Of a DNA stretch of 64,000 nt, positions 4,270-56,422 are shown piece after piece (position 1 is the stretch's first letter; every line of letters begins with the position of its first letter). Below the pieces are notes generated by a model. That model was given only the letters and a program-made list of their open reading frames with translations. It did no database searches and had not been told where the DNA came from. Both the position numbers and the translations under genes were made by a program. The stretch spans positions 57,837 through 121,836 of the forward strand of contig JBAZSW010000005.1 in the NCBI GenBank assembly GCA_041662245.1. Reading direction: 5' to 3'. Origin of the DNA: Parcubacteria group bacterium (GTDB lineage: Bacteria > Patescibacteriota > Minisyncoccia > Moranbacterales > UBA9337).

Positions 4270-4343
4270 TTTTACATAAAATTAAAAATGGGGTTATTTT
4301 GATTATTTTATTTTTTTAAAATAACCCCGCTAAAAAAAATAAA

Positions 4344-4700: not shown

Positions 4701-4722
4701 TATTTTATAAAAAAAGTAAAAT

Positions 4723-5067: not shown

Positions 5068-5108
5068 AGATTTCTACGAAATTTGTTTATTTTTTTACAC
5101 TTTAAATT

Positions 5109-5462
5109 ATGATGATTAAAAAGACATCATTAAAAATATTTAGTTTTTTTGTTTTAACGCTGCCAATGTTAGTGTCGGCTCAATACACAGCGCCAAAAGA
5201 CACGAAACTTCCCACAGGAGAATTAGCCACTATTATAACTAATATAATGAATTGGCTACTGGTAATTTTGGGAGTAATTGGAGTAATTGGTTTTGTTATT
5301 GCAGGAATTTTTTATTTAACAGCGGCGGGAAATGATGATCAAATAAGTACAGCTAAAAAGGCGATGACTTGGTCGGTTGTGGGGGTAATTGTGGGGTTAG
5401 TAGGTTTGGTAATTATTACAGCTGTTGAAACAATGTTGGGCGGGACTGATCCTAAATTTTAA
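5109..5462 (+). CDS. TrbC/VirB2-like T4SS pilin-like protein (paralog 5)
   Basis: Same architecture and motif (FYLTAAGNDDQISTAKKAMTWSV). Confidence 0.65.
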   Translation: MMIKKTSLKIFSFFVLTLPMLVSAQYTAPKDTKLPTGELATIITNIMNWLLVILGVIGVIGFVIAGIFYLTAAGNDDQISTAKKAMTWSVVGVIVGLVGLVIITAVETMLGGTDPKF

Positions 5463-5475
5463 TTTTAATTAATAT

Positions 5476-5874
5476 ATGAAAAATAAATTTGCTATATTTT
5501 TTTTATTGCTAGGATTGGTTTTTTTTGCTGGAAAAGTTTTAGCTGTGACTTGTCCCAGCTCAGGGAGTTGGGATAGTTCGTCGGGAGTCTGCATTCCTAA
5601 TAATACTGGATTACCTTCTCCAGGAGGAGATAGCCCTTTGGCAACTGTAATTAATAATGTAATGAAGTGGCTGCTTCTTATAGTAGGATCTATAGCTATC
5701 ATTGCTTTTGTGATTTCGGGTATTCAATATTTAACTTCTGCGGGAGATCAAAATGCAATTGAAAACGCCAAACGAAATATGTGGTGGTCGATTGTGGGAG
5801 TAGTAGTTGCTCTAATAGGGATGATAATTCTTAATTTTGTTTTTACGACTATTTTGGGTGGGTCTTCTTCGTAA
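5476..5874 (+). CDS. TrbC/VirB2-like T4SS pilin-like protein (paralog 6, with an extra Cys-containing N-terminal segment)
   Basis: Signal peptide; CPSSGSWDSSSGVC; QYLTSAGDQNAIENAKRNMWWSI. Confidence 0.6.
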   Translation: MKNKFAIFFLLLGLVFFAGKVLAVTCPSSGSWDSSSGVCIPNNTGLPSPGGDSPLATVINNVMKWLLLIVGSIAIIAFVISGIQYLTSAGDQNAIENAKRNMWWSIVGVVVALIGMIILNFVFTTILGGSSS

Positions 5875-5928
5875 AGTTAATTAATCTGAATTTAAGTTTA
5901 TTTTAAATAATATAAATAAAATATTAAA

Positions 5929-6564
5929 ATGAAAATTTTAAATTTTAAAAAAATAATAGCCAGTTTTCTGATGAGTATTTTTATATTTTGTGGTTCCTTT
6001 AATTTAGCTTTAGCGGCTTGTGCTACAGGAACTACGGCTAGTGGAAATATTTGTTTTGAAAACCCTTTGTCTTATAATACCGTAGATGGAATTTTAAGCG
6101 CGCTTCTTATTCATTTACAGGGGATAATCGTGGTAATTTCGATGGTTTTTATTGTGATCGGAGCTATCCTTTATATGACTTCAGCTGGAGATGAAGGAAA
6201 AATGAAAATAGCTAAAGGAGCAATTTTTGCGGCGGTGATCGGACTGGCGATTGGAATCGCGGCGCCATCATTTTTAAAAGAAATTTATACTGCCTTAGGA
6301 AAAAGTACTAGTGATAGTCTTATTTCTTCTGCTCCAGATCTGGCTACAATTGCACTTAATGTCCTTAACTTTTTGCTTAGCGTTACAGGAGTGATTGGAA
6401 TTATAATGTTGGTAGCAGCAGGAATAGCCTATATGACCGCAGCTGGAAATGAAGGTCAAATTGAAACAGCTAAAAAAATGACTACTTGGGCAATTATTGG
6501 AATTGCAGTAGCTTTGGGAGCTTTGGTAATAGTTCAACAAGTGGCTAAATTTTTCTCTACATAG
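5929..6564 (+). CDS. Tandem two-domain TrbC/VirB2-like pilin-like protein (paralog 7, internal duplication)
   Basis: Two successive TM-loop-TM modules: LYMTSAGDEGKMKIAKGAIFAAV and AYMTAAGNEGQIETAKKMTTWAI. Confidence 0.6.
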   Translation: MKILNFKKIIASFLMSIFIFCGSFNLALAACATGTTASGNICFENPLSYNTVDGILSALLIHLQGIIVVISMVFIVIGAILYMTSAGDEGKMKIAKGAIFAAVIGLAIGIAAPSFLKEIYTALGKSTSDSLISSAPDLATIALNVLNFLLSVTGVIGIIMLVAAGIAYMTAAGNEGQIETAKKMTTWAIIGIAVALGALVIVQQVAKFFST

Positions 6565-7830: not shown

Positions 7831-8622
7831 TTATTGTTTTTTGTTGTCTTTGAGCCACTGAGTGGCATCTTTAACCAAATCACTTAAGTCTTGAGACTCA
7901 AGCTTGGCCTTGGTACCTAATTTTCCTGCTACTTTCGCGGCGGTAGATTTTTTTTCTACTGTGATAGTGGAGAAAAAATTCTTTCTCTTTAGCCACTGTA
8001 GAATAGAACCATGGTCGCTGTGGGACATCATTCGTTTAATGAATCCCTGAGCGAGAGTGTAATTGTAAACAATCTCAACTTCCACAGGTTTTCCATTCTT
8101 TCCGCCACCAGTTTTTATTTCCTTGCTGGTGATTTTTTTGACTATTACTTCACGAATTTTTTCGGATCGTTTTTTTCCATCGGGCTGTTGCTCTTCGAGC
8201 CAACCCATAAAACTTTCGAAGGAATCTATTATTGTCTGATCCATTCCTTCAAGGGCATTATCACAAAGCACTTCGTCTCCAAGAGATTTCTCGCCGATTT
8301 CAAACATCTTTTCCACCTGTGAGGTTAATTTCTCCCCGATTTTTCTACTTCCGCTTTCAATGGCGCTGGTAAAAATGTGTCCAAAGGGGGAACTTAAAAA
8401 ACTCCATATCTTTGAAAAAAATCCGATTGTTGCAGCTGCCATGGTAGTTCTCCTCATTAAGTTGTCAAAGAGCCTCTGGGAGGCTCCAGTTAATGTTGCC
8501 TCTGAGTCATCAGATATGCCGGTTCTTTTATGTGTTTTGGCATAAAAATGCCTAATATAGACACAAAAAGGGCAATATATTTGATGACCCTTAATACTAG
8601 CACGTTTTTGTGTTTTTGTCAA
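7831..8622 (-). CDS. Hypothetical protein (the true start is probably an internal Met, ~200 aa)
   Basis: Long ORF transcribed divergently from the PaaX-like gene. Confidence 0.4.
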   Translation of the reverse strand: MTKTQKRASIKGHQIYCPFCVYIRHFYAKTHKRTGISDDSEATLTGASQRLFDNLMRRTTMAAATIGFFSKIWSFLSSPFGHIFTSAIESGSRKIGEKLTSQVEKMFEIGEKSLGDEVLCDNALEGMDQTIIDSFESFMGWLEEQQPDGKKRSEKIREVIVKKITSKEIKTGGGKNGKPVEVEIVYNYTLAQGFIKRMMSHSDHGSILQWLKRKNFFSTITVEKKSTAAKVAGKLGTKAKLESQDLSDLVKDATQWLKDNKKQ

Positions 8623-22537: not shown

Positions 22538-22933
22538 ATGGAAAACAAAAAAGAAAAAATAAAATCATTTACTGATTTAAACGCTTGGAGAGAAGGACAT
22601 AAGTTGGTTTTAGAAATTTATAATATAACGAAACTATTTCCTGAAGATGAGAGATTTGGTTTAATTTCTCAGATGAGAAGATGTGCAGTTTCTATAACAT
22701 CAAATATCGCAGAGGGTTTTAGCCGTAAGGGTATGAAGGAAAAAATTCAGTTTTATCATATATCTCTTGGATCTATAACAGAATTGCAAAATCAGCTATT
22801 GATCTGTAGAGATTTAAAAATTTTAGATAATGATAAATTTAAAAAAATAGCCCAGCAGACGACGCTGGTACAAAAAATTACCAACGGATTAATCAAGTCA
22901 ACAAAATATATGAATTCTGAATTTAATTCATAA
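22538..22933 (+). CDS. Four-helix-bundle protein (23S rRNA intervening-sequence protein family), copy 1
   Basis: AW..GHKLVLEIY..T..FP..ERFGLISQMRRCAVSITSNIAEGF.R. Flanked by the inverted repeat tgaattaagaatta. Confidence 0.85.
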   Translation: MENKKEKIKSFTDLNAWREGHKLVLEIYNITKLFPEDERFGLISQMRRCAVSITSNIAEGFSRKGMKEKIQFYHISLGSITELQNQLLICRDLKILDNDKFKKIAQQTTLVQKITNGLIKSTKYMNSEFNS

Positions 22934-22956
22934 TTCTTAATTCACGTAAAATAAAT

Positions 22957-23970
22957 ATGAAAAGAAGAAAAAAAATAATAATTTGGGTAGTAATATTGGC
23001 AGTTTTAGGTGCAGGAGCCTATTATTATTTCAAGCCCAAAAAAACTGGTCTAGAATATACTACCGAAAAAGTAGCTAAGGCAGATATTAAACAGACAGTT
23101 TCTGTAACGGGAGAAGTGAGCGATATCAGCAGATTAGACATTACTCCTGAGATAAGTGGGACGGTAGATGAATTGTTAGTAAAAGTTGGAGACAAGGTTA
23201 TTAAAGGACAAAAAATTGCCAAGATAAATGATTCCGTTGTGCGGTCACAGTTAAATGAGTCAATGATTGCCCTTCAAACTCAGCAAGAGCAATTAACTTT
23301 AAAAAGAAGAAAATGGGAATCTCTGGCTCCCGAGGAAAGGGAGTTGGCAAAACTAGCTGTGGAGAGTGCTCGGGCGGCCACGTGGACGATTCAAAAGCAA
23401 CTTAAAAAAAATGTAGTCTATGCCCCCGTAGATGGAATAGTCACAAAAAAATATTTAGAAGTAGGAGAGATGGCTTCAGTGGCAACTCCTATAGTAACTA
23501 TTTCTGGAGAAAAAGGTTTTGAAATTAAAGCTAATATTCCAGAGTCAGATATTAATAAAATTGAAATAGGACAAAAAGGGAAATCAACTTTTGATGCTTT
23601 TCTTTCAGATGAAATATTTGAATTTGAAGTTACTGAAATTGAGCCAGCTGCAACCATTATTCAAGACGTGGTTTATTATGAGGTGACTTTTAAAATTTTA
23701 ACTCAAGATAATCGTATTAAATCAGGAATGAGTACAGATATTGATATTTTAACAGATGAAAAGAAAGATGTTTTGGCAGTTTCTAATCAAGCTATTAAAA
23801 ATGATGAAGGTAATCGATATGTGGAAGTTTTGGAATTAAAAGACAAGGTCAAAACTACTAGAAAAATAAATGTAAAAGCAGGATTAAGAGGAGATGATGG
23901 AATGACGGAAATTATTTCGGGATTAAATGGTGGTGAGGAAGTAATAACTTTTACAAAGGAAGCTAAATAA
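22957..23970 (+). CDS. Efflux transporter periplasmic adaptor subunit (HlyD/MacA-like)
   Basis: N-terminal TM, coiled-coil, and beta-barrel/lipoyl-like motifs of the membrane-fusion-protein family. Confidence 0.75.
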   Translation: MKRRKKIIIWVVILAVLGAGAYYYFKPKKTGLEYTTEKVAKADIKQTVSVTGEVSDISRLDITPEISGTVDELLVKVGDKVIKGQKIAKINDSVVRSQLNESMIALQTQQEQLTLKRRKWESLAPEERELAKLAVESARAATWTIQKQLKKNVVYAPVDGIVTKKYLEVGEMASVATPIVTISGEKGFEIKANIPESDINKIEIGQKGKSTFDAFLSDEIFEFEVTEIEPAATIIQDVVYYEVTFKILTQDNRIKSGMSTDIDILTDEKKDVLAVSNQAIKNDEGNRYVEVLELKDKVKTTRKINVKAGLRGDDGMTEIISGLNGGEEVITFTKEAK

Positions 23971-24018
23971 GAACTTAGGAATGCAAGAATTTAGGAATCT
24001 AGGAATATAAAAAATTAG

Positions 24019-24408
24019 GTGTTTAGAAATATGGGAAATGAAAAGATAAAGGATTTTACAGACTTAATCGTTTGGAAAGAGGGACATAAATTGGTATTAA
24101 TGATTTATGATGCTACAAATAACTTTCCTAAAAATGAAAGATTTGGTTTAGTTTCTCAGATGAGGAGATGCGCAGTTTCCATTACATCTAATATTGCAGA
24201 AGGATTTGGAAGAAAAGGATACAAAGAGAAACTGCAATTTTATTATGTGTCATCAGGATCGCTTAGCGAATTGAAAAATCAGACTTTAATTGCTAAAGAT
24301 GTAAAATATTTATCCGAAAAATCTTTTATTGATATTATGCAACGAGCTGATTCTACGCACAAACTTTTAAATTTATTTATATCGAAAACAAAAACATTTG
24401 TATCTTGA
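24019..24408 (+). CDS. Four-helix-bundle protein (23S rRNA IVS protein family), copy 2
   Basis: LIVWKEGHKLVLMIY...RFGLVSQMRRCAVSITSNIAEGFGRKG. Confidence 0.85.
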   Translation: MFRNMGNEKIKDFTDLIVWKEGHKLVLMIYDATNNFPKNERFGLVSQMRRCAVSITSNIAEGFGRKGYKEKLQFYYVSSGSLSELKNQTLIAKDVKYLSEKSFIDIMQRADSTHKLLNLFISKTKTFVS

Positions 24409-24475
24409 GTTTTTACATTTACAAATTCCAAAATTTTTAGTCTCTTAAATTCATATATTCTTAACTTCTCAAAAA

Positions 24476-25204
24476 ATGTCAACTCCATTAATTCAAATAA
24501 AAAATCTAACTAAAACTTACATTAACGGTGAAGTGGAAACTTTGGCGTTGGGCAAAAATTCTTTTAATATAGAAAAGGGAGAATTTGTTTCCATTATGGG
24601 CCCGAGCGGTAGTGGTAAATCAACCTTGATGCAAATGCTAGGACTTTTGGATAAGCCCAGTGGAGGGGAATATTTTTTAGAGGGTAAAAATACAAGAGAT
24701 TTTTCAGATGATATTTTGGCCGAAACTAGAAATAGTAAAATTGGTTTTGTTTTTCAAACCTTTAATCTCTTGCCTCGCACTAGCGTATATGAAAATGTCG
24801 AATTGCCCCTTCTGTATAATAGAGATATTAGTAGCAGTATTAATGAAAAGAAAATTACCGAAGCTTTAAAATCAGTGGGGATGGAACATCGAACTAGCTA
24901 TCTTTCTAATCAGCTTTCTGGAGGAGAAAAACAAAGAGTAGCTATCGCACGAGCGTTGGTAACTGATCCAGAGATAATTTTTGCTGATGAGCCAACAGGA
25001 AATTTAGATTCAAAAAGTGGAACCCAAATAATGGAAATTTTACAAAAACTGAATAATGAAGGAAAAACGATTATCTTGGTAACACATGAAACTTTTACTG
25101 CTCAACATGCTAAAAGAATTTTAAATGTAAAAGATGGTTTGATAATTTCTGACGAAATAGTAAAAGATAGAAAAATTGCCCAAGATGGAGAACTGCTAAA
25201 ATAA
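24476..25204 (+). CDS. ABC transporter ATP-binding protein (MacB/LolD-type)
   Basis: Walker [10 protein letters not shown], signature [15 protein letters not shown], and Walker [13 protein letters not shown]. Confidence 0.9.
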
Positions 25205-25230
25205 TTTCGAATTTCGAATTTCGAATTTCG
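25203..25230. repeat. (aatttcg)4 heptanucleotide tandem repeat in an intergenic spacer
   Basis: aatttcgaatttcgaatttcgaatttcg. Confidence 0.8.
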
Positions 25231-25318
25231 ATTGAATTTTAAATGAAATAATGTTTAAAAAATTAAAACATTAGAATTTGATTCAAAATTAAAAATTCTA
25301 AATTTAAAATTATTTGAA

Positions 25319-26566
25319 ATGCACATATTTATTCCCATAAAAATTTCTCTTAAAAATTTAATGGCGGCTAAATTCCGTTCTTTTTTAACTATTTTGGGAA
25401 TTATTATTGGGGTAGCTTCGGTGATTATTATTTTTGCTGTAGGGCAAAGTGCTCAAGAATTAATCCTTGATCAAATTAGGGGAGTGGGTTCAAATTTGGT
25501 GGGTGTTTTGCCAGGTGCCTCAGATGAAAAAGGTCCTCCTGCCTCGGCCATGGGCATAGTGATTACAACCTTGAAGTATAATGATTTTTTGGAACTTAAA
25601 AAACCAAAAAATGTAACTGGAGTAATGGCGGGGGCGGGTTATGTAATGGGAACGGCTACCATAGAAAATGATGGGACAGAACTGGGTATGTCTTTTACGG
25701 GCGTTACATCGCAGTATCCAGAAGTTGAAAGTACCGGAATGAGTGATGGAAGATTTTTTATTGAAGAAGAGGAAGTTAATTTATCCAAAGTTGTTGTTTT
25801 GGGAAAAACGGCAGCCAAGGATATTTTTGGAGATTCTGATCCAATAGGAAAAAAAATAAAAATTAATGATTATAAATTTACTGTAGTGGGGGTTCTCAAA
25901 GAAAGATCTTCAGCCGCTTTTGGTATGGCTAGTCAGGATGAAGCGGTTTTTGTCCCACTCTTTACAGCCCAAAAACTGCTTTTGGGTATCAATCATTTGG
26001 CTTACGTCAGGTTAAAAATAGATTCAATAGAGAATATTCCTATTGCCAAAGAAGATATTGCTATTACTCTCAGAAATCAGCATGATATTGAGGATCCAGA
26101 TGATGATGATTTTTCAGTTCGAGATCAGGCATCAGCTATAGATATAATAAGTACAATAACTAATGCCATGCGTTATTTTCTTTTGTCAGTAGGAACGATT
26201 TCTTTAATTGTGGGCGGAGTAGGGGTGATGAATGTGATGTTGATAGCTGTTAATCAAAGGATAAAAGAGGTGGGACTCCGAAAAGCAGTGGGGGCAAAAA
26301 ATAGTGATGTAATGCTTCAATTTTTAATTGAATCCGCCACGATATCTTTTATGGGAGGATTAATCGGAATAATCATTGGGATATCTTTTTCTTTTGGTGC
26401 CTCATTGATGATAAACTCATTGGGATATGATTGGAAATTTATTATTTCTCCCAGTTCGATTGTGATTGCTGCAACTGTTTCTATTATGATTGGAATAATT
26501 TTCGGTTTGTATCCAGCTTTAAAGGCAGCCAAAATTAGTCCGATGGAAGCTTTGCGTTATGAATAG
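25319..26566 (+). CDS. ABC transporter permease, FtsX/MacB-like (MacB_PCD plus FtsX domains)
   Basis: N-terminal TM, large periplasmic domain and a C-terminal 3-TM FtsX domain. Partner of the ATPase. Confidence 0.8.
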   Translation: MHIFIPIKISLKNLMAAKFRSFLTILGIIIGVASVIIIFAVGQSAQELILDQIRGVGSNLVGVLPGASDEKGPPASAMGIVITTLKYNDFLELKKPKNVTGVMAGAGYVMGTATIENDGTELGMSFTGVTSQYPEVESTGMSDGRFFIEEEEVNLSKVVVLGKTAAKDIFGDSDPIGKKIKINDYKFTVVGVLKERSSAAFGMASQDEAVFVPLFTAQKLLLGINHLAYVRLKIDSIENIPIAKEDIAITLRNQHDIEDPDDDDFSVRDQASAIDIISTITNAMRYFLLSVGTISLIVGGVGVMNVMLIAVNQRIKEVGLRKAVGAKNSDVMLQFLIESATISFMGGLIGIIIGISFSFGASLMINSLGYDWKFIISPSSIVIAATVSIMIGIIFGLYPALKAAKISPMEALRYE

Positions 26567-26622
26567 TTTTAATTAAAAATTAAAAGTGCAAAATTAAAAG
26601 TTGCAATCCAAAATTAAAATTT

Positions 26623-27000
26623 ATGGAAAAGGAAGAATTTAAAAAAATGTTAAAATTAAGAGCCTTCAATCTGGCTCGAAATATAATGAAATTAACAGAT
26701 AGATTTCCTCAAAAAAGATCTGCTTGGGTAATAGCTGATCAATTACTTCGTTCCGCCACTAGTATTGGAGCCAATATAATAGAGGCACAAGCGGCCAGTT
26801 CAAAAAGAGATTTTATAAATTTTTTAAACCATGCACTAAAGAGTGGCAATGAAACCAAATTTTGGTTGGCATTAGCTAAAGATTTGGATGATAAATTAGT
26901 TCCAGAAATAGAAAAACAACTCAAAGAAACTGATGAGCTAGTAAGAATACTAGGTTCTAGCATAACAACTTTAAAAGGTAAGAAAACTTTGAATTGTTAA
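26623..27000 (+). CDS. Four-helix-bundle protein (23S rRNA IVS protein family), copy 3 (divergent)
   Basis: AFNLARNIMKLTDRFP...QLLRSATSIGANIIEAQA. Flanked by an inverted gtgcaaaattaaaagttgcaa / tgcaaagttaaaaatta. Confidence 0.75.
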   Translation: MEKEEFKKMLKLRAFNLARNIMKLTDRFPQKRSAWVIADQLLRSATSIGANIIEAQAASSKRDFINFLNHALKSGNETKFWLALAKDLDDKLVPEIEKQLKETDELVRILGSSITTLKGKKTLNC

Positions 27001-27043
27001 CTGTAATTTTTAACTTTGCATTTTTAAATTTTAATTTAATAAC

Positions 27044-28321
27044 GTGAATAAATTTTTTATTTCAATTAAACTCGCTTTAAGAAATCTTTATGGCAATAAG
27101 GTGCGAACCGCTTTATCGCTTTTGGGTATTGTTATTGGAGTGACTTCAGTGATTTTGATTTTAGCTTTAGGTAATGGTTTGAGAAATTTTGTTACTGATC
27201 AGGTAGAGAGCTTTGGAACAGATATTGTGCAGATAGAGATCAAAGTTCCCAAAACTTCTCATGTTTCTTCAGAAAATATGGGGGCGATGGCTGGGGGAAC
27301 TCAAATTACTACTCTTAAAATAGAAGAGTTGGAAGAAGTGGCTAAGTTGGCTAATCTAGGTGATTGGTATGCAGGAATATTGGGTCAGCAAATTGTTACG
27401 CGAGAGGATGAAAATGAGCAAACTTATATTTTTGGTGTGACTAGTGGGATGATGGAGGCAGACAGTGGGGCAGAGCTGGAAAAGGGAACATTTTTTACCG
27501 ATGAGGATGATAGAGATTTAAAACAGGTAGCTATCTTGGGAAGCAAAACTAAAGATTTATTTTTCCCCAATGAGGAAGCTGTGGGCCAAAGTATTAAAAT
27601 TGGAAAAAATAAATATAAGGTTATTGGTGTGGTGAAAGAGCGGAGCTCGAGTGGTGGTTTTGATTTTAATAAAATTGTTTACATTCCAGTCAAGACTCTC
27701 CAAAAAAAGATAATGGGAATTAAACATGTGCAATTTGCTATTTTTAAAATAAAAAATATGGAAATTGTTGATCAAACTATGGAAGAAATGCGTTCTATTA
27801 TGCGAGATAAACATGATATAGAATATGAGAATGAGAAGGATAAAAAAGAAGGCATTGATGATGATTTTGCTATAATGTCGATAGCTGAAGCTAAGGAAAT
27901 TTTAGATAAAGTTTTTAATATTATTGATTATTTACTTTTAGCTCTAGTTTCGATTTCTCTGATAGTGGGAGGCGTAGGAATAATGAATGTGATGTATGTG
28001 GCAGTAGCTGAACGAACTCAAGAGATAGGCCTAAGAAAAGCGGTGGGGGCTAGAAATAGTGATGTGCTTTGGCAATTTATTTTTGAAGCAATATTTTTAA
28101 CTTTGTTAGGTGGCGCTGTGGGGATAATTTTGGGAATTTTATTTGCTGAATTAGCCACCTATTTAATTGCTCAATATAACTATAATATTATTTTTGGGGT
28201 TACTGGCCGGTCAGTATTTATCGCAGTGGGATTTTCTATGATCACGGGAATAGTTTTTGGGTTTTACCCTGCCAAAAGAGCTTCTCAGTTAACTCCCGCT
28301 GAGGCATTACGCAAAGAATAA
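27044..28321 (+). CDS. ABC transporter permease, FtsX/MacB-like (second permease)
   Basis: Paralogous architecture to 25319-26566. Confidence 0.8.
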   Translation: MNKFFISIKLALRNLYGNKVRTALSLLGIVIGVTSVILILALGNGLRNFVTDQVESFGTDIVQIEIKVPKTSHVSSENMGAMAGGTQITTLKIEELEEVAKLANLGDWYAGILGQQIVTREDENEQTYIFGVTSGMMEADSGAELEKGTFFTDEDDRDLKQVAILGSKTKDLFFPNEEAVGQSIKIGKNKYKVIGVVKERSSSGGFDFNKIVYIPVKTLQKKIMGIKHVQFAIFKIKNMEIVDQTMEEMRSIMRDKHDIEYENEKDKKEGIDDDFAIMSIAEAKEILDKVFNIIDYLLLALVSISLIVGGVGIMNVMYVAVAERTQEIGLRKAVGARNSDVLWQFIFEAIFLTLLGGAVGIILGILFAELATYLIAQYNYNIIFGVTGRSVFIAVGFSMITGIVFGFYPAKRASQLTPAEALRKE

Positions 28322-36449: not shown

Positions 36450-36532
36450 ATCTTGTCATTTTTTCAGAAAGGGAAATCTAAAATTAAAAAACGACCTCGG
36501 GTGAGATCGTTTGGATTGTCCATGATAAGACT

Positions 36533-36721
36533 TTAGCATCGGCATTGCCTCAAATCAGAAAATGTTGCGTTACATGAGCGGCAATGATATTTATCTGGTC
36601 GAGATATTTGAGAAGTGTTTAGGCTTGTCTTTCCTTGGGCTGGATTGGTTTCAACGTCAGAACTGCTACAGTTAGGACAAGCCATTTTTGGAGGCTCCCA
36701 TTTGGCTAGCTTTCTTAGCAT
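36533..36721 (-). CDS. Small zinc-ribbon protein (IS1 InsA-like CxxC-x20-CxxC)
   Basis: MACPNCSSSD...GKT...YHCRSCNATF. Confidence 0.45.
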   Translation of the reverse strand: MLRKLAKWEPPKMACPNCSSSDVETNPAQGKTSLNTSQISRPDKYHCRSCNATFSDLRQCRC

Positions 36722-36797
36722 AATGTTGTTTCCTTTTTAGGTGAGTATCGGTGGCAGAAATTTACGAAATAACTCTCCACATGAGCGACATTTGTTT

Positions 36798-36926
36798 TTA
36801 ATTGTTCTGGCTTTGATGCCATCTTTTTTTAAAAAAGTGGTATTTCTCAAAACAATTGCTCGCTCCGCAATAGGGACAGCGTCTCTTGTCAACGATGTTT
36901 TTATTCATAGGGTATCTCCTTGTGTG
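36798..36926 (-). CDS. Small Cys-containing protein (CPYC..C); start taken at the internal Met
   Basis: MNKNIVDKRRCPYCGASNCFEKYHFF. Member of a tandem group of Zn-ribbon ORFs. Confidence 0.3.
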   Translation of the reverse strand, partial: HTRRYPMNKNIVDKRRCPYCGASNCFEKYHFFKKRWHQSQNN

Positions 36927-37113
36927 ATAGCGTAGTATCCCCAAAAAAATTTCCGCAGGTAAAACAGAACCATTTTGCATTCCGTAAAGAACAAGCGTCG
37001 ATATTATAATTTGGATTTAAAACGACACTTTCTTCGTTTTCTCCATCAGGATTGCAATAAGGGCAGAAAGGGCAGTCATCATGACTTGTGTCAATAAATT
37101 CATGAGTGTTCAT
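36901..37113 (-). CDS. Small zinc-ribbon protein (CPFCPYC ... CFTC)
   Basis: MNTHEFIDTSHDDCPFCPYCNPDG...WFCFTCGNFF. Confidence 0.4.
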   Translation of the reverse strand: MNTHEFIDTSHDDCPFCPYCNPDGENEESVVLNPNYNIDACSLRNAKWFCFTCGNFFGDTTLSHKEIPYE

Positions 37114-37138
37114 GGTAACCTCTTTGCGTAGAAAAATT

Positions 37139-37321
37139 TTAACCAAAATCATGTCCACAGCCAGAACAATAAAATTTTGTTATCCTAAAGCTATGAAGTT
37201 TCATTTTTTGAGCAGCAACGGTTTCTCTGATAGGGTTTTTTTTAACGTTTTTAGATGTTTTACACTCGGGACATTGGGGGCAAACGTTTTGTTTATCAGC
37301 TGACTTTTCTAATTGATTCAT
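37139..37321 (-). CDS. Small zinc-ribbon protein (CPQCPEC ... CSGC)
   Basis: VCPQCPECKTSKNVKKN...FYCSGCGHDF. Confidence 0.45.
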   Translation of the reverse strand: MNQLEKSADKQNVCPQCPECKTSKNVKKNPIRETVAAQKMKLHSFRITKFYCSGCGHDFG

Positions 37322-37540
37322 ATTATCTCCCTTGTCTGAGGATTTAAAAGGTACTGCATTAGTTTATCTTTTGATTATATAAGATAATATAATTATATCA
37401 TATAGTCAAGCGTTAATTTCTTGAGTTCAAGTTTTAAAACATTGACAAAATCCTAAAAATATGATATTTTTGGAGGTCAATGTTTTTTTGACAATTAAAT
37501 AGAACGTATAAATATAAAACCCAAAATAGGAGGTGGGAAT

Positions 37541-38722
37541 ATGAAAAGAGCACAGTGCTTTATTTCAAAATATTCCCAGCTACTTAAGTTGGGGATGTGG
37601 ATAGGAATTATTTTCTGGGCCACTCAGTTGGGTGGTCAAGTTTGGAAAATTCATCAAGATAATAATCTTGTTCCGGAGCTCACTGCTTCGGAGAGAGAAA
37701 CTGTCAATAAGGAGTTGCTATCTTTTTATGAGAATCTTCTTTCTGTGGCTAAGTCCAAAGGTGAAAATTATGGTCCTAAGGATTATTTTATTGATCTTCG
37801 GTTGATCGAAAAGAAAACGGAAGAGATTCAACAAAAATATGCAATGGGGTCAATTTGGTCAAGATATGCTAGCGAATTGCAAAGTATGTCTATGCGTAAT
37901 ATTGAAAGACCAAACTCTAAATTTACTCACCAGCAGATTAGCGATGAGGCAAGGAAATATAGCGATGAATTAAAAAACGCAACATCAATTGAATTTCACG
38001 AGAAATTCAGATCAATGAGTTTCAGTGAAAAACAGGAGGCAGTAAAACAGTTTTGTCGCTTGAACCTTCCTAAATTGATAAGTTGGATTTTTATTCTCTA
38101 TGTGAGGGGGACACTTTTAGCTTGGTGTTTGTTTTCCTTGAGGATGTGTGAGCGAAAAGGAATTCTGGCTACGATACTGAGCGATAAAAAAAGGTTTGCG
38201 TTAGCAATGATTTTTTGGCCGTTCCTTTTGGCAAAATATCCTGCTAATGTAATTCGCGAGATTGTTGTTGAAGCTGAGCTTCGTAGAATCGGAAACTTTT
38301 TTCGGAGACTTACAACTGAAGAAAAAGAACTGGTTCGTCACGTGGCTCAAAGCAGAGGTTTCCTAGGGTGGATCAGACAGTTTCATAAAGATAATGTCTG
38401 TCTATTTCAGAGATCTTTTGCAATGGCTTTGGTGGCAGTTGCAATCGTTAACTTTGTCCATATCGAGGAGAGTAAGGCGGATGAAATAAATTCCATTAGG
38501 GCGGGGACATCCATTCAAATGGAAATTTCTCAAGATGATAATGCAGATTGTACGAGTCTTAAATCTAAGTTTTTTAAGACTGATGTGGACTATGCAATCT
38601 TTCTGGAAAAAAATCTTAATATTGTAACGCCTGCTGGTATTTCTGGGTTAGTAGTTTTTATGGAAAGGATCTTCCGAAAGCAGGAGTTTGTAAGAAAAAT
38701 AGATCATATTCCTATTTGCTAA
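37541..38722 (+). CDS. Hypothetical membrane-associated protein (393 aa)
   Basis: The RBS aggaggtgggaat precedes the ATG. Contains TM segments. The region is GC-enriched. Confidence 0.5.
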   Translation: MKRAQCFISKYSQLLKLGMWIGIIFWATQLGGQVWKIHQDNNLVPELTASERETVNKELLSFYENLLSVAKSKGENYGPKDYFIDLRLIEKKTEEIQQKYAMGSIWSRYASELQSMSMRNIERPNSKFTHQQISDEARKYSDELKNATSIEFHEKFRSMSFSEKQEAVKQFCRLNLPKLISWIFILYVRGTLLAWCLFSLRMCERKGILATILSDKKRFALAMIFWPFLLAKYPANVIREIVVEAELRRIGNFFRRLTTEEKELVRHVAQSRGFLGWIRQFHKDNVCLFQRSFAMALVAVAIVNFVHIEESKADEINSIRAGTSIQMEISQDDNADCTSLKSKFFKTDVDYAIFLEKNLNIVTPAGISGLVVFMERIFRKQEFVRKIDHIPIC

Positions 38723-38781
38723 TTTTATTGACCGGCTGTCACTGGAGTTAATAAAATTACTAAGCAAATAAGGAGAAAGCT

Positions 38782-39423
38782 ATGTTTAAGAAAAATACTT
38801 GGATAATCGTCGTTGTTGTCAGCATGCTCTTGTCTTCAGAAATGGCGTTGGCAGGAAATGGAAGTATTGTCATGCGAACAAATCTGATTGACCCATCTCA
38901 CCAAGAAAGTTATTTCAGCAATGATATTAATTTTTATCTTACGGTGAGTGAAAAACTTAGTTTCGGATTTGAAACCAGTTTTTCTCCCAAGAGTGATTAT
39001 CTCAAGGTTAAACCTTTTGCAACTTGGGCAGTTGATAAGAGTTGGAGCTTGATTGGAGGATTTTCTTCCGATAGCTCTGATCATGAATATGTCCTAGGAG
39101 GTCTCAGTTATTTTAAGAGACTTAGCGAGAGTAACAGCATTTATATTTCCGCATGTTATTATGTGGGGACAAACGAAGGGTCAAGCGACTATGTTGATTC
39201 TTTTGCTGAAGTAAAGCATAACTTCGGCAATGGTTTTGCTCTGGCAATTGAAGTCATTTATGATTATTGGCCAAGCGAGGGAAATAATTGGATGCTGATT
39301 GGTCCAGTTCTTCACTACGCCGTTAGTGATAAAGTTGATCTCTTTGTAAGGGTCGCAGGTGAAAACAATCTGGAGCAATGGAATTCTATTGATTTCCGGA
39401 TTGGAGCGACCTATTCGTTCTAG
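38782..39423 (+). CDS. Outer-membrane-protein-like beta-barrel protein (OmpW/OmpA-like small barrel) with a signal peptide and a C-terminal aromatic beta-signal
   Basis: Signal peptide ...MALA|GNG. Alternating amphipathic strands. C-terminal FRIGATYSF (hydrophobic at -9, -7, -5, -3; terminal Phe). Confidence 0.55.
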   Translation: MFKKNTWIIVVVVSMLLSSEMALAGNGSIVMRTNLIDPSHQESYFSNDINFYLTVSEKLSFGFETSFSPKSDYLKVKPFATWAVDKSWSLIGGFSSDSSDHEYVLGGLSYFKRLSESNSIYISACYYVGTNEGSSDYVDSFAEVKHNFGNGFALAIEVIYDYWPSEGNNWMLIGPVLHYAVSDKVDLFVRVAGENNLEQWNSIDFRIGATYSF

Positions 39424-39433
39424 TTCTTTGTGA

Positions 39434-39472
39434 AAAGCAGGAAGTTGTATCTTACAATTTTCTGCTTTTTTG
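39434..39472 (+). terminator. Rho-independent terminator
   Basis: aaaagcagga...ttctgctttttt. Confidence 0.6.
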
Positions 39473-39513
39473 TGCTAAAATCAAGATAGAGCAATACTTT
39501 TTTAATACTATTT

Positions 39514-39609
39514 ATGGAAAAAACAATAAATATTTTTGGAGATAGCATCGCTTGGGGTGCATATGATGATAATGGTGATCGGGTAAATAGACTAAAAAAA
39601 TTAAATTAA
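39514..39609 (+). pseudogene. Truncated SGNH/GDSL hydrolase gene fragment (N-terminal 31 codons only)
   Basis: MEKTINIFGDSIAWGAYDDNGDRV... carries the GDS(L) catalytic motif, then stops. Confidence 0.4.
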
Positions 39610-39697
39610 AAAATAGTAATTTACTTCCACACTTCAAAGCGTAGCAGTAAAATGCAATTAAATAAATTTTTAAATAATTGAGACTAATAAAAAAAAT

Positions 39698-39988
39698 ATG
39701 AATCAGCCCAATCAAAATCAACAAGTCCAAATCAAAGCGACGGATGAAAAATTAAAAGGTGAGTATTCTAATGCGATGCAAATACTTCATACTAAAGAAG
39801 AATTTGTTTTGGATTTTTTAAATATTTTTCCACCGACGGGAACTTTAAATTCAAGAATGATTCTTTCTCCGGGACATTTCAAAAGAATGATAAAAGCGAT
39901 GGAAGAAAATTTAAAAAAATACGAAGAGCAATTTGGAAAAATCGAAATAGCCACTGAACCCAAGAATGAGATAGGATTTAGAGGATAG
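39698..39988 (+). CDS. Hypothetical small protein (DUF3467-like)
   Basis: 96-aa ORF with an N-terminal QN-rich segment. Confidence 0.4.
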   Translation: MNQPNQNQQVQIKATDEKLKGEYSNAMQILHTKEEFVLDFLNIFPPTGTLNSRMILSPGHFKRMIKAMEENLKKYEEQFGKIEIATEPKNEIGFRG

Positions 39989-40223
39989 CATATGGAGTAC
40001 CATATGAATTTCCAATTTCCAATTCTCAATTTCCAATCAATGGTCAATGTTTTAATTTTAAAAAAAGAACTTGATTTCTTAATATTTTTTTAACTTCTTT
40101 TTGAGCAGGGAGTTTTTTTTGTTGAGATATCGATAAGTATAAATTAAAGGTAACGTTAAAAATTGAAGAAAATAAAAAAAGCGGATTCTTGTCGTAGGTT
40201 CACGATGAATCCGTTTTTGCAAT

Positions 40224-40658
40224 TTAGTTCTTTTTTATTTTTTCTATTTTATAATCATTGAAATGAATTCCAGATAAAATCAATCCAACTATAAATAAGA
40301 AGGGGGATAATATTATTCCGTAGCGCACTTTAATCGCGACAATAATTGCTATGATGCAACAGAGAAGTGCCATCATCCCAAGAAAAATTCTTTTTATTTC
40401 TGACATAATATTTAGAGTATGATTTTTGGAGAATTTTTTTTCTTGGATTATTTTGTCTATTCGAGGAGTGTGAATGTAAACAGCCAAAGAAAAAGATCCT
40501 GTTATGGAAAAAATAACAAAAAAGATAAATCCGTAAGAAGCTCCGAAAACTAAAGTAATTGCACCTAGATAGCAGATAATAGCTGTTATTAAAAGGGTAG
40601 GATTATTTGTTTTTGGAAAGACATTCGTTTCGATTTTAATTATATTTTTAAATGACAT
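40224..40658 (-). CDS. Hypothetical membrane protein (4 TM helices)
   Basis: Hydrophobic ORF. Confidence 0.45.
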   Translation of the reverse strand: MSFKNIIKIETNVFPKTNNPTLLITAIICYLGAITLVFGASYGFIFFVIFSITGSFSLAVYIHTPRIDKIIQEKKFSKNHTLNIMSEIKRIFLGMMALLCCIIAIIVAIKVRYGIILSPFLFIVGLILSGIHFNDYKIEKIKKN

Positions 40659-40764
40659 AATTTCCCCCTAGAAATATTTTTAAATATCAAAGTAAAAAGA
40701 ACTGATTCTATTTTGTTATAACAAACAAAAATTTTATTGTCAAAAAATATTTTTAAAAAATTTA

Positions 40765-40802
40765 CAAAAAACTATTGTACAAATTTTTTATTGTTGTATA
40801 AT
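40765..40802 (+). promoter_or_regulatory. Promoter copy 1 (TTGTAC-16-TATAAT) within a 38-bp direct repeat
   Basis: acaaaaaactattgtacaaattttttattgttgtataat, repeated exactly 94 bp downstream. Confidence 0.55.
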
Positions 40803-40858
40803 AAAAGTAAATAAAAATATTTTACAAAAATAATTTTAGAAAAAAATAAAATTTTTTC

Positions 40859-40895
40859 AAAAAACTATTGTACAAATTTTTTATTGTTGTATAAT
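40859..40895 (+). promoter_or_regulatory. Promoter copy 2 (TTGTAC-16-TATAAT)
   Basis: Identical 38-bp repeat about 100 nt upstream of the Lys/Ala-rich small gene. Confidence 0.55.
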
Positions 40896-40994
40896 TATTA
40901 TATGACGAAATAATATGTGAGAAGTGGTCGAGCTTCTCAGTTAAAAATAAAAAATAATCCAGTGAGAAATTGCTGGCTAGCCTAAAATAAAAAA

Positions 40995-41150
40995 ATGGCA
41001 ACAAAGAAAAAAGCTGTTAAAAAAGTAGCTAAGAAAAAAGTAGCTAAGAAAACAGTTAAAAAAGCTGTAAAAAAAGTAGCTAAGAAAACAGTTAAAAAAG
41101 CTGTAAAAAAAGTAGCTAAGAAAACAGTTAAAAAAGCAAAAAGGAAATAA
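40995..41150 (+). CDS. Histone H1-like Lys/Ala-rich repetitive basic protein (51 aa, AVKKVAKKTVKK repeats); absent from the ORF track
   Basis: Translation is MATKKKAVKKVAKKKVAKKTVKKAVKKVAKKTVKKAVKKVAKKTVKKAKRK*. The underlying 36-nt DNA repeat occurs 3 times. A terminator lies immediately downstream. The annotated antisense ORF 40982-41173 is its shadow. Confidence 0.55.
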   Translation: MATKKKAVKKVAKKKVAKKTVKKAVKKVAKKTVKKAVKKVAKKTVKKAKRK

Positions 41151-41163
41151 AGACAAAAATTAG

Positions 41164-41203
41164 ATGACCACACTTCAAAAGATAGATGTGGTCATCTTTT
41201 TTT
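41164..41203 (+). terminator. Rho-independent terminator
   Basis: gatgaccacac ttcaaaagata gatgtggtcatc tttttttt. Confidence 0.8.
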
Positions 41204-41228
41204 TGTGAATTATTTTTATAATTAAAAA

Positions 41229-41266
41229 AAATAAAAAACGGAAAGCGTGAGAAGCCTTTCCGTTGG
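41229..41266 (-). terminator. Rho-independent terminator for the minus-strand gene 41289-41672 (functional in both directions)
   Basis: aacggaaag cgtgagaagc ctttccgtt with a T-run on the minus strand. Confidence 0.65.
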
Positions 41267-41288
41267 TAATATGTATTACGGCGTTTTA

Positions 41289-41672
41289 TTATTTTCTGCT
41301 GTATTTTTGTAACGCTCTAGAAATATCATCAAGCGCAATGGATTCTTTTTTTATCTCTTCGAATATATTTCTGTAATTGTTTAAGGAAGTTTCCTTAATC
41401 AATAGTTCTCTTTTTAATTGGTCAATCATTTCTAGCGCCGACTTGAGACTTAGTTGAAGAGCAATAATACGCTCTCTGTCGTTAACTAAATCGTCTAAGG
41501 TAAATTCTGTGAGAGAATATAAAAATTTTTCTGTACCTATTTCCGTTAATTCATTTTTCGAAAGTGACTTTTCTTGTTGGGAAAGGGCTGATCCTTTTAG
41601 GGAGGAAATCATCACCTTTAGTTCTCCTAGTAATGAAACTTCTAGTGGCAAACTGCTTGTTGTTTCAACCAT
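41289..41672 (-). CDS. Hypothetical coiled-coil protein (127 aa)
   Basis: ORF with heptad-like charge pattern. Confidence 0.45.
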   Translation of the reverse strand: MVETTSSLPLEVSLLGELKVMISSLKGSALSQQEKSLSKNELTEIGTEKFLYSLTEFTLDDLVNDRERIIALQLSLKSALEMIDQLKRELLIKETSLNNYRNIFEEIKKESIALDDISRALQKYSRK

Positions 41673-41855
41673 TTCAAATCTCCTTATGAAAATAAAATTA
41701 ATTGAGTTAGGGGCATTAAGTTACTATGTTAAATTTAGTAGTTTATTATGATTTAGTCAATTATTTCTATTTTGACATAAGGACTTATTTTTAGTACTAT
41801 ATATAGAGTAAAAACAAAAATAATTCTTTAGATAAGAAGCCTCGAATAGTTTTGC

Positions 41856-42959
41856 TTGGGGTTTGTTTGTATGTTTAAAAAAATTAGAAACTTTTATAGA
41901 AAAATAACAGGAAAAATATTTGGAAATTTTTCTAAAGATATTGGAATTGATCTAGGGACAGCTAACACTTTGGTATATGTAAGCGGAAAAGGAATTGTAA
42001 TTAATGAGCCTAGTGTCGTAGCTATAAATAAAAAAACAGGACAAATTTTGGCTATTGGAAAAAAAGCCAAACAAATGGTGGGTAAAACTCCTAGCCATAT
42101 TGTCGCCACTCGTCCGTTGGTAAATGGTGTAGTAAGTGATTTTGAAGTGACTGAACAAATGCTCCGATACTTTATCGATAAGGTTCATCAAGATTCTTTT
42201 TCGATTATGCCTCGACCAAGAGTATTGATCGGGATTCCTTCAGAAGTTACTGAGGTAGAAAAAAGAGCGGTAATCGATGCGGCTATTAGCGCAGGGGCGA
42301 GAGAGGCTTATATTATTGATGAACCAATGGCAGCCGCTATTGGAGCTCATCTACCAGTGACAACAGCCGCTGGAAATATGATTGTAGATATCGGAGGAGG
42401 AACTTCCGAAATCGCAGTTATTTCTTTGGGAGGAGTAGTTGCTTCAAGAAGTTTGCGAATTGCGGGAGATGAAATGAATGAAGATATTATTAGATATTGT
42501 CGAGACGAATTTAATCTATTAGTAGGAGAGAGAACAGCAGAGGAGGTAAAGATTGCTATCGGGAGCGCTTATCCACAAGAAAAAAAATTGACTATGGCAA
42601 TACGGGGAAGAGATTTAGTGAGTGGACTTCCCAAAGAATTAAAAATTAATGATGAACAGGCTCGAGAAGCGATTTCTCGTTCGATAAGAATAATCGTTAA
42701 TAATATCAAAACTATTATTGAAGATACGCCACCAGAATTAATTGCCGACATTATGCAACGAGGAATAATTTTGGCTGGAGGTGGTAGTCTGATAAGAGGG
42801 TTGGATAAGCTAATTGCTAATCAAACAGGGATATCGGTGCGCACTATGGAAGATCCGTTAACAGCTGTAGTAAGAGGAACAGGAATAGTTTTGGAAGATT
42901 TGGAATCGCTCAAAGAAGTTTTAGCTGCTAATCAATATGATGATAGTCCTTTAAGATAA
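41856..42959 (+). CDS. mreB: Rod shape-determining protein MreB (actin-like ATPase)
   Basis: IGIDLGTANTLVYV, DIGGGTSE and LAGGGSLIRGLD motifs. Confidence 0.95.
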   Translation: MGFVCMFKKIRNFYRKITGKIFGNFSKDIGIDLGTANTLVYVSGKGIVINEPSVVAINKKTGQILAIGKKAKQMVGKTPSHIVATRPLVNGVVSDFEVTEQMLRYFIDKVHQDSFSIMPRPRVLIGIPSEVTEVEKRAVIDAAISAGAREAYIIDEPMAAAIGAHLPVTTAAGNMIVDIGGGTSEIAVISLGGVVASRSLRIAGDEMNEDIIRYCRDEFNLLVGERTAEEVKIAIGSAYPQEKKLTMAIRGRDLVSGLPKELKINDEQAREAISRSIRIIVNNIKTIIEDTPPELIADIMQRGIILAGGGSLIRGLDKLIANQTGISVRTMEDPLTAVVRGTGIVLEDLESLKEVLAANQYDDSPLR

Positions 42960-55718: not shown

Positions 55719-55876
55719 TTAAAACTAAAAATATCAAAGAAAGTATTTTTGTTAAATTGAATATAAATGGTGCGGGGTATTTACAAAAAACAATAATAGT
55801 GGTACAAGTAATTAGCGACTTAATAAGGGGTTGCTTTTTAGTTAAGAATAAAAACAAGAAAAGGGGAGGAAAATTC

Positions 55877-56422
55877 ATGTTAAAATGGTTCTTTTGTATT
55901 GTCTTGGTAGTGTCTATGGGTACAGGTGTGGCGGGCGCTACACTGGTATCCGACACAGTTGCCTTGGGACCCACCTCAAATTTTGAGGGGTACGTAAGCC
56001 ATGGTCGTGGCGATGTGAACTTCCTGGATGGAATTGGCGACTTTGTGGCTTGGGAGCATACATTTAATGTTGCACCTAACGCTCAAGATGCCACATTGGA
56101 AATTTCTTTTCGGGATGATGACTCTGACAGTTGGAGGCCGTCGTCTTGGGAGCTAGCCATTTTTGTCGGGGAAAGTGCTCAGATACTGGTTACTGTAGGA
56201 GAGGTCAACACCGGAGTTTGGACGACGTCAATTGACCCCAGTTTTCTTTCAGATGGGATTTTCCAAGCTGTTATCTGGAGTGTTTGGGGAGATCTCTATG
56301 TGGATTCTGCCACTTTGAGTTTTGAGTCTGTTCCTGTGGCACCTGTTCCCGAGCCAGCAACGATGTTGCTATTCGGGGCTGGACTTTCTCTATTTGGGAT
56401 AGTGAGACGCAAACAGTCATAG
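55877..56422 (+). CDS. PEP-CTERM sorting-domain protein (secreted; start at 55877 after the RBS aaggggagga)
   Basis: Signal peptide. C-terminal VPEPATMLLFGAGLSLFGIVRRKQS is a PEP motif plus TM plus basic tail. Sits in a GC-enriched segment. Confidence 0.65.
   Translation: MLKWFFCIVLVVSMGTGVAGATLVSDTVALGPTSNFEGYVSHGRGDVNFLDGIGDFVAWEHTFNVAPNAQDATLEISFRDDDSDSWRPSSWELAIFVGESAQILVTVGEVNTGVWTTSIDPSFLSDGIFQAVIWSVWGDLYVDSATLSFESVPVAPVPEPATMLLFGAGLSLFGIVRRKQS

Follow-up and report, generated by a model that had tools for sequence, protein, structure and literature searches.

The locus

We analysed a 64-kb stretch of DNA from a Parcubacteria group bacterium (contig JBAZSW010000005.1; the whole stretch is referred to below as the window), and focused on an open reading frame (ORF) whose product is predicted to be a β-barrel with the fold of outer-membrane proteins (OMPs). 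The initial annotation of this stretch, made from the sequence alone, had proposed such a barrel at this ORF and had called it unexpected should the organism belong to the Candidate Phyla Radiation (CPR, or Patescibacteria). The protein exactly matches the entry 'MAG: hypothetical protein WC682_04085 [Parcubacteria group bacterium]', from a 127,673-bp contig, which makes the organism a CPR member; the predicted barrel is thus indeed found where it was not expected. Immediately upstream, on the same strand, lies a gene for a predicted cytoplasmic-membrane protein of ~390 residues, which we call the partner. The two genes appear to form a conserved operon, a key piece of context absent from the initial annotation, and we predict with high confidence that they are co-transcribed and co-inherited. 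The following features were found at the locus:

37442..37470, plus strand: promoter-like site preceding the partner gene, TTGACA-17-TATTTT and an upstream TG (10 of 12 matches in a scan for the consensus)
37541..38722, plus strand: partner gene, predicted 393-residue polytopic cytoplasmic-membrane protein (ORF call; AGGAGG 8 nucleotides before the ATG)
38782..39423, plus strand: barrel gene, 213-residue precursor with an ATG start (ORF call; AAGGAG 8 nucleotides before the ATG)
38782..38853, plus strand: predicted signal peptide, residues 1-24, with cleavage after A-L-A (n, h and c regions; modelled helix 6-20)
39397..39420, plus strand: β-signal R-I-G-A-T-Y-S-F, residues 206-213 (motif match and conservation)
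39432..39470, plus strand: predicted intrinsic terminator, a hairpin and U-run right after the barrel gene (RNA folding energy -20 kcal/mol, z -5.2, none of 200 shuffles as good)
39514..39600, plus strand: remnant of a GDSL-lipase gene, its first ~29 codons and then a stop (tblastn against the relative L001, 69% identity, E 5e-8)

The gap between the partner and barrel genes is 59 nucleotides, and the Shine-Dalgarno sequences ahead of both ATG codons are strong, with the same 8-nucleotide spacing. The promoter-like site is weak evidence, since such sites are at least as frequent in shuffled versions of the region.

Export and assembly signals

The precursor begins with MFKKNTWIIVVVVSMLLSSEMALA, followed by GNG after the predicted cut, and this N-terminus has the n, h and c regions and the A-x-A site of a type I signal peptide, as read directly from the sequence rather than with a dedicated predictor. 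A comparable signal sequence stands at the start of 12 of the 13 orthologues examined. In the exception (locus L022), the N-terminus is unreliable because the first-Met rule placed the start too far upstream. We are highly confident that the barrel precursor would be exported by the Sec pathway and its signal peptide removed, in agreement with the cleavable signal peptide proposed earlier.

The protein ends in F-R-I-G-A-T-Y-S-F, with hydrophobic residues at positions -9, -7, -5 and -3 and Phe as the last residue. A C-terminal β-signal is read by BamA/BamD of the β-barrel assembly machinery (BAM), and the residue pattern fits the BAM-type signal that the initial annotation had recognised here. 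The strict form of the motif, ζ-x-G-x-x-(hydrophobic or aromatic)-x-(F, W or Y) at the very end of the protein, occurs in the barrel ORF only, among the 77 window ORFs of at least 80 residues. Within the barrel family, 73 of the 85 full-length members end in Phe and 45 of the 85 have the strict motif. Close relatives all share R206, G208 and F213, and R206 is kept in 70 of 78 alignment rows. The orthologue in L004 (Parcubacteria; 3284-4009) runs ~19 residues beyond the family's terminal Phe, ending in ...NLPDFFME, and its β-signal is internal; this extension could be real, or it could be an assembly error.

Predicted structure of the barrel

AlphaFold2 with only five sequences gave a poor model (mean predicted local distance difference test score, pLDDT, 52.9), which was replaced by a run with a 78-member alignment. 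The resulting model (pLDDT 93.3; predicted template-modelling score 0.81) has a helix at residues 6-20 and 12 strands, each of 10-13 residues. A Foldseek search of the PDB with this model returned 216 matches at E ≤ 1e-3, and the best 50 of the 216 comprise 49 outer-membrane β-barrels and one de novo designed transmembrane barrel. The top matches are the 12-stranded proteins KdgM, PcoB, NanC and VhGalP. For KdgM (4pr7_A), the E-value is 1.7e-8, the TM-scores are 0.82 (normalised to KdgM) and 0.68, and the root-mean-square deviation is 2.8 Å over 190 columns. We infer from these superposition scores, through the TM-score to KdgM, that the barrel is probably closed.

The initial annotation had suggested a small OmpW/OmpA-like barrel of 8-10 strands and had named AlphaFold as a way to check it. 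Both the model and the Foldseek matches uphold the barrel type, but not the strand number or class: as 12 strands are modelled, the protein is not of the 8-10-stranded OmpW/OmpA type, and it resembles KdgM, NanC and PcoB instead. The eight-stranded OmpW/OmpA-like class was rejected for the further reason that neither OmpA nor OmpW is among the best structural matches.

With strand boundaries taken from the model, dyad hydrophobicity separates a hydrophobic from a polar face in 11 of the 12 strands, which bears out the alternating strand pattern noticed in the initial annotation. The 61 lipid-facing positions contain a single charge and 15 aromatic residues. The 65 lumen positions contain 16 charges (six K/R and ten D/E) and are net acidic, and the lumen is more conserved than the lipid face (1.96 versus 1.67 bits). 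The barrel loops are 4-7 residues long on both faces, and the family medians for all 11 loops are 3-7 residues, again on both faces. With high confidence, the model predicts a monomer-sized, 12-stranded antiparallel transmembrane barrel of OMP fold. With the same high confidence, its exterior is predicted to be hydrophobic and girdled by aromatic residues, and its lumen to be polar, net acidic and more conserved.

A small sequence family found in CPR-named sources

The barrel protein has no match in Pfam or NCBIfam and no significant match among PDB sequences; its best PDB profile match is the C-terminus of OmpG (E 0.033), and the Pfam model of KdgM (PF06178) does not match it at E ≤ 1. A word-indexed search found only four relatives. 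An exhaustive HMMER search of 1.84 billion proteins with a profile of these relatives gave 84 representatives at E ≤ 1e-3. Each representative stands for a cluster at the 50% identity level, and nearly all are 190-260 residues long. A later word-indexed profile search added a single protein (P0093). The Pfam matches of family members are all below threshold, and outer-membrane-barrel families lead among them: among 78 members, DUF2490 is matched by eight, Phenol_MetA_deg by four and OMP_b-brl by two, while Porin_4, OMP_b-brl_2, Phage_OMP and DUF481 are matched by one each. Ten further families with sub-threshold matches, also to one member each, are unrelated. The barrel thus belongs to a small new sequence family of known fold.

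As to the nearest relatives, for which the initial annotation had proposed a search, every classified named source of a family member is CPR, by NCBI names Parcubacteria twice and Candidatus Moranbacteria once. A scan of GTDB genomes, confined to short back-translated peptide patterns, found a single Parcubacteria locus and does not fix the taxonomic range. No relatives of the barrel were found in viral contigs, phage genomes, plasmids or PHROGs, and an origin from a mobile element was therefore rejected. Likewise, no homologue from a diderm donor was found among the 1.84 billion representatives and the viral, phage and plasmid sets.

The partner and the two-gene operon

The partner has no match in Pfam, NCBIfam, PHROG, PADLOC or PDB-sequence searches. 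Neither protein has a significant match in these collections, and the searches therefore tie the pair neither to defence systems nor to phages. We analysed the topology of the partner from hydropathy, charge and conservation. Its N-terminus is predicted to lie inside the cell, followed by a transmembrane segment (residues 14-34), an extracytoplasmic domain of ~140 residues and a second transmembrane segment (179-200). The remainder would consist of a cytoplasmic segment (201-291), a third transmembrane segment (292-312) and an extracytoplasmic C-terminal domain of 78 residues. The cytoplasmic segment is basic and highly conserved, with the motifs RMxERKGILxTILxDKK and KYPxNVxREIVVEAELRRIG, and the C-terminal domain ends in a conserved HIP motif.

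Orthologues of the partner, 29-55% identical, are encoded upstream of barrel genes. Their identity to the window protein is 53% in L001, the closest relative, 35% in L004 (Parcubacteria) and 31% in L005 ('bacterium BMS3Abin15'), and Candidatus Moranbacteria GW2011_GWF2_34_56 and L007 also have a partner orthologue ahead of the barrel. The partner profile was then used to scan metagenomes, and local searches with hidden Markov models (HMMs) identified 15 distinct loci in which the barrel gene follows the partner gene after 37-73 nucleotides. The pairwise identity matrices of the two proteins are strongly correlated (r = 0.94; Mantel test, 0 of 5000 permutations), which shows that the genes are inherited as a unit. 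When the neighbours of related loci were compared, no third gene was found to recur beside the pair.

Composition and synteny

The initial annotation had suggested horizontal acquisition of the barrel gene, should the organism belong to CPR, and had placed it in a GC-enriched island at 36500-39500 that also carries a cluster of zinc-ribbon ORFs:

36533-37321, minus strand: four or five short zinc-ribbon ORFs in a row, each with CxxC...CxxC (62, 51, 60, 85 and 60 residues), divergent from the partner gene

The enrichment is present only weakly. The GC content of 36500-39500 is 0.368, compared with 0.338 ± 0.017 for 3-kb windows, but it is equalled or exceeded elsewhere, at 5.5-9 kb, 34-38.5 kb (which covers dnaK) and 56-59 kb. 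The GC content at third codon positions (GC3) is 0.274 ± 0.048 in 58 other ORFs, versus 0.350 and 0.364 (z 1.6 and 1.9) in the two genes. The GC3 of the barrel gene exceeds that of its neighbours in all nine loci tested, and raised GC3 therefore looks like a property of the barrel gene. A scan of GC and tetranucleotide usage, as the initial annotation had proposed, thus finds a mild shift in GC but not a distinct composition: the tetranucleotide distance of 37001-40000 is typical of the window (z -0.3), and that of 36501-39500 has a z of 1.66. Most of the local deviation in GC3 and tetranucleotides is supplied by the zinc-ribbon cluster, and the true tetranucleotide outliers lie at 39-42.5 kb and 0.5-4.5 kb. 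The zinc-ribbon cluster is not conserved beside the pair in other loci; a link to the barrel is not supported, and we dropped the cluster as a component of the system. The 51- and 60-residue zinc-ribbon ORFs overlap in different frames and resemble a single paralogue split by a frameshift.

Gene order gives further information on inheritance. In L001 the order is partner, barrel, GDSL lipase, ..., DUF3467, and the flanking synteny is shared with the window; the pair with these shared flanks is present in L001/L017. In the window, a remnant of the lipase gene lies between the barrel and DUF3467 genes and reads MEKTINIFGDSIAWGAYDDNGDRVNRLKKLN before its stop, compared with an intact gene of 200 codons in L001. 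We take this remnant as a marker of synteny rather than a working component of the system. Given the shared synteny, including the lipase remnant, the pair is ancestral to both genomes and not a fresh insertion. Compared with L001, housekeeping proteins are 72-85% identical, versus 53% for the partner and 58% for the barrel. The pair thus appears to be vertically inherited, and it is fast-evolving. No tRNA gene was detected anywhere in the 64-kb window, and no integrase or transposase family turned up among the window ORFs scanned. Horizontal acquisition is therefore not supported, in view of the mild compositional shift, the typical tetranucleotide usage, the synteny with L001 and the lack of mobility genes, tRNA genes or a diderm donor in these searches.

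The truncation of the lipase gene marks a deletion that also took two further genes present in L001. The DUF3467 gene (39698-39988, plus strand) matches a PHROG of unknown function (E 4.9e-9). It adjoins the pair in four loci (the window, L001, L017 and L025), and in L001 two copies flank the pair (3594-3881 and 8262-8549). We considered DUF3467 as a third component and dropped it, since it is near the pair in these four loci only, though a link to the cassette is possible.

Comparison with known barrels

The KdgM/NanC porins (4pr7, 4fqe, 2wjq, 8xua) are the best structural matches, and resemble the predicted barrel in having ~190-210 residues when mature, 12 antiparallel strands, no plug domain, fairly short loops, a signal peptide and a C-terminal aromatic residue. 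However, the identity in structural alignments is only 11-16%, and there is no match to the KdgM family in Pfam. KdgM and NanC are channels for acidic sugars and have basic lumens, whereas the lumen of the predicted barrel is net acidic. Further differences are that the loops are shorter still, that the source is CPR rather than Proteobacteria, and that the barrel is paired with an inner-membrane partner.

PcoB/CopB (7pge) also has 12 strands (Foldseek E 2.2e-7; TM-scores 0.66 and 0.71). PcoB/CopB conducts cations through an acidic lumen, and its operon also encodes envelope partners. On the other hand, we detected no sequence relationship to PcoB/CopB, there are no multicopper oxidase or other Pco genes nearby, and the partner in our case is a polytopic membrane protein without a family match. 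The only families that several barrel members touch, at E ~1e-3, are DUF2490 and Phenol_MetA_deg (COG4313; 4rl8; Pfam clan MBB), and COG4313 is also among the structural matches of the barrel. However, these matches are below gathering thresholds, none involves the window protein, and the two families come from diderms. Finally, phage-encoded OMP-like barrels (BFVD; Pfam Phage_OMP) are similar in size and fold (best E 2.2e-7, TM-score 0.60), but the likeness is at the level of the fold, with 8-13% identity.

Evidence on the cell envelope

Patescibacteria are described as monoderm (PMC11665869; also 10.1101/2025.01.22.634366), and in comparative work CPR falls within a monoderm clade from which porins were lost (10.1101/2021.05.31.446380) together with outer-membrane tethers. 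A cultured relative is described as Gram-positive (PMC12281837). Our search of the literature available to us found no account of OMP-like barrels or BamA in Patescibacteria, nor any mention of BMS3Abin15. In the window, no family for outer-membrane biogenesis was found among the ~60 ORFs scanned, and we considered and rejected the idea that another OMP or a TolC-like protein is hidden among the unannotated ORFs, as no second ORF in the 64 kb resembles either. Genes for LytR-CpsA-Psr and sortase, both typical of monoderms, are among the neighbours in related loci.

One other exported protein of the window points in a different direction:

55757-56422, plus strand: PEP-CTERM exported protein, with a probable start near 55877 (passes the Pfam and TIGR02595 cut-offs)

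It has a signal peptide (MLKWFFCIVLVVSMGTGVAGA) and a canonical C-terminal sorting signal (VPEPATMLLFGAGLSLFGIVRRKQS), and it lies in the 56-57 kb bin, which has the highest GC content in the window (0.401). The PEP-CTERM/exosortase system is classically a trait of diderm bacteria that produce exopolysaccharides. Among the window ORFs scanned, none was seen to encode an exosortase.

Interpretation and alternatives

A conserved and evidently functional barrel of OMP fold, carrying a BAM-recognised signature and encoded in an operon with an inner-membrane protein, raises the question of which membrane it occupies. On balance, we favour the interpretation that the pair is a vertically inherited, CPR-specific, two-component envelope channel, in which the barrel would be a passive pore and the partner a docking or assembly factor. 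The barrel would form a small channel for the passive movement of solutes in a lipid layer outside the cytoplasmic membrane of the symbiont. The partner, through its two extracytoplasmic domains, would be dedicated to docking or assembling the barrel and would tie it to the cell, and its conserved cytoplasmic segment might couple the module to something inside. The layer that bears the barrel may be an unrecognised outer layer of these cells, or it may be the host membrane at a contact site. That the pair is functional is indicated by the intact signals, the conserved partner and the sequence conservation across the family.

Several points weigh against this interpretation. The fold comes wholly from prediction, including closure, which was drawn from the TM-score to KdgM. 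The description as CPR-specific depends on three CPR-named sources and one unclassified bacterium, and most family members come from metagenome contigs. The correlation of identities reflects co-inheritance, not physical contact, and the topology of the partner and any contact with the barrel were deduced from sequence. The envelope type is taken from literature on the phylum, not from the source genome, and the PEP-CTERM protein in the same window makes the assumption of a plainly monoderm lineage weaker. In addition, the two genes are not always found together: the barrel occurs without the partner in two loci with distant family members (L012 and L014/15), and the partner occurs without the barrel in three loci (L011, L025 and L027), in which other exported proteins follow it:

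L011, 9178-11267: a 60-residue transmembrane peptide and two ~300-residue paralogues, each with an N-terminal transmembrane segment
L025, 7106-7801, and L027, 2243-2896: a protein with a signal peptide, ~220 residues in L025 and cut by the contig end in L027

These replacement proteins may be divergent barrels or alternative cargo. The barrel HMM matches them at E > 1 at most, with filters off (E 4.5 for L027; L025 not listed). By eye, the N-terminal regions of the replacement proteins in L025 and L027 look related.

Among the alternatives, the one that survives best, though we consider it unlikely, is that the barrel is an ordinary porin. In that case the organism, or a sub-lineage of Parcubacteria/Moranbacteria, would have an outer membrane and its own BAM, or the contigs would be mis-binned DNA of a diderm. 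The conventional signal peptide, OMP fold and Phe-ending β-signal are all what a porin would have, and the canonical PEP-CTERM signal and a HlyD-type membrane-fusion protein with MacB permeases (see below) are found in the same window. However, systems of a membrane-fusion protein with MacB are also found in Gram-positives, the phylum is described as monoderm, and neither an outer-membrane-biogenesis family nor a second OMP-like ORF was detected among the window ORFs. Moreover, the family is very rare, at 84 clusters, and it travels with an inner-membrane partner that porins do not need. Mis-binning or chimerism is unlikely because the same pair occurs in independent CPR-named assemblies and because the housekeeping context (dnaK, mreBCD-PBP2) is ordinary.

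Somewhat less probable still is that the channel is directed at the host. At the attachment site, the BAM of a diderm host would insert the exported barrel, through its conserved β-signal, into the host's outer membrane; the partner, in the membrane of the symbiont, would dock onto the barrel, which would serve as a conduit for taking up solutes from the host periplasm. This alternative would account for a β-signal that is conserved in a phylum reported to lack BAM. The pair also evolves faster than housekeeping genes when compared in the same relative, as expected of host-interface proteins, the short loops on both faces across the family would permit close apposition, and the extracytoplasmic domains of the partner are sizeable. 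Patescibacteria are, moreover, obligate epibionts with many surface proteins (PMC11665869). Against this, there is no known route by which an unfolded barrel released by Sec would get to the periplasm and BAM of a host, the loci compared show no secretion-system gene linked to the pair, and for some relatives within Parcubacteria the host is an archaeon (PMC12281837). In its boldest form, which we regard as a long shot of about the same standing, the barrel would be an intercellular feeding channel: a monoderm CPR cell, auxotrophic for lipids and nucleotides, would reach into the host periplasm through a host-inserted barrel, with the partner seated on its near loop-less face. As a less radical variant, some Parcubacteria/Moranbacteria may keep a cryptic outer lipid layer with OMPs.

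It is improbable that the barrel is not embedded in lipid at all. Its hydrophobic surface might instead be buried by oligomerisation, by helices of the partner or by a proteinaceous layer, or might bind a hydrophobic ligand, such that the protein would be a structural or wall element or a lipid carrier. A monoderm cell has no obvious second bilayer, and CPR bacteria cannot make their own lipids and need those of their hosts, according to a general statement on their reduced metabolism (PMC11665869). In Thermotogae, arrays of barrel protein only, with little lipid, are described (10.1101/2022.09.22.508938). However, strands of 10-13 residues, a continuous hydrophobic belt of 61 positions that includes aromatic residues, and a lumen that is charged and conserved are what characterises a channel that spans a bilayer. 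In addition, the nearest structures are true porins, and the rarity of the family argues against a general component of surface layers.

Lastly, we consider it very improbable that the barrel is a recent foreign gene, brought in from a diderm donor on a GC-rich island and possibly without native function, a reading that builds on the initial annotation: the GC3 of the pair and of the adjacent zinc-ribbon ORFs does lie above the window mean, but the offset is small and recurs in orthologues, the tetranucleotide usage of the pair is typical, flanking synteny and the lipase remnant are common to a relative, no tRNA gene, integrase, transposase, or diderm, plasmid or phage homologue was found in the sets searched, and the signs of function given above argue otherwise.

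What is new here is a barrel family of known fold, and its pairing with a membrane protein, in a phylum regarded as monoderm. The cassette is compact, with two genes in ~1.9 kb. Possible readings are that an outer lipid layer has gone unrecognised in some CPR lineages, that a dedicated partner assembles β-barrels independently of Omp85, or that the barrel acts in the membrane of another cell. If true, any of these would bear on the loss or retention of outer membranes in Terrabacteria or on how episymbionts extract nutrients, and a cryptic outer layer, if real, would be at odds with a phylum that is monoderm throughout.

Other features of the window

Family scans of the window ORFs indicate an ordinary chromosome. 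The genes hrcA-grpE-dnaK lie upstream of the barrel ORF and mreB-mreC-mreD-PBP2 lie downstream, and IF-2, NusG, L11, L1, ArgRS and NrdD are also encoded. The window further holds VirB2-like pilin arrays that are typical of CPR, and the following features:

1365-2441 and 2445-3560, plus strand: a 358-residue secreted protein with a weak pilin match, and an SLT lytic transglycosylase, ahead of the pilin array
3898-6564, plus strand: six tandem VirB2-like paralogues, 'T4SS_pilin' (PF18895; family scan)
22538-28321, plus strand: HlyD-type membrane-fusion protein, ATP-binding cassette (ABC) ATPase and two MacB/FtsX permeases
40995-41150, plus strand: 51-residue Lys/Ala-rich ORF with AKKxVKK repeats, histone H1-like

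The pilin array and the genes that precede it make up a cluster for surface filaments of the CPR-style type IV secretion system. Three paralogues of the '23S rRNA-intervening sequence protein' (four-helix bundles, PF05635), at 22538, 24019 and 26623, are interleaved with the HlyD/MacB genes, and such a regular alternation with transporter genes is unusual. The strongest tetranucleotide outlier of the window is 39000-42500 (z 3.4), where the GC content falls to 24.6% at 40-41 kb; this region also encodes, on the minus strand, a 144-residue protein with four transmembrane segments.

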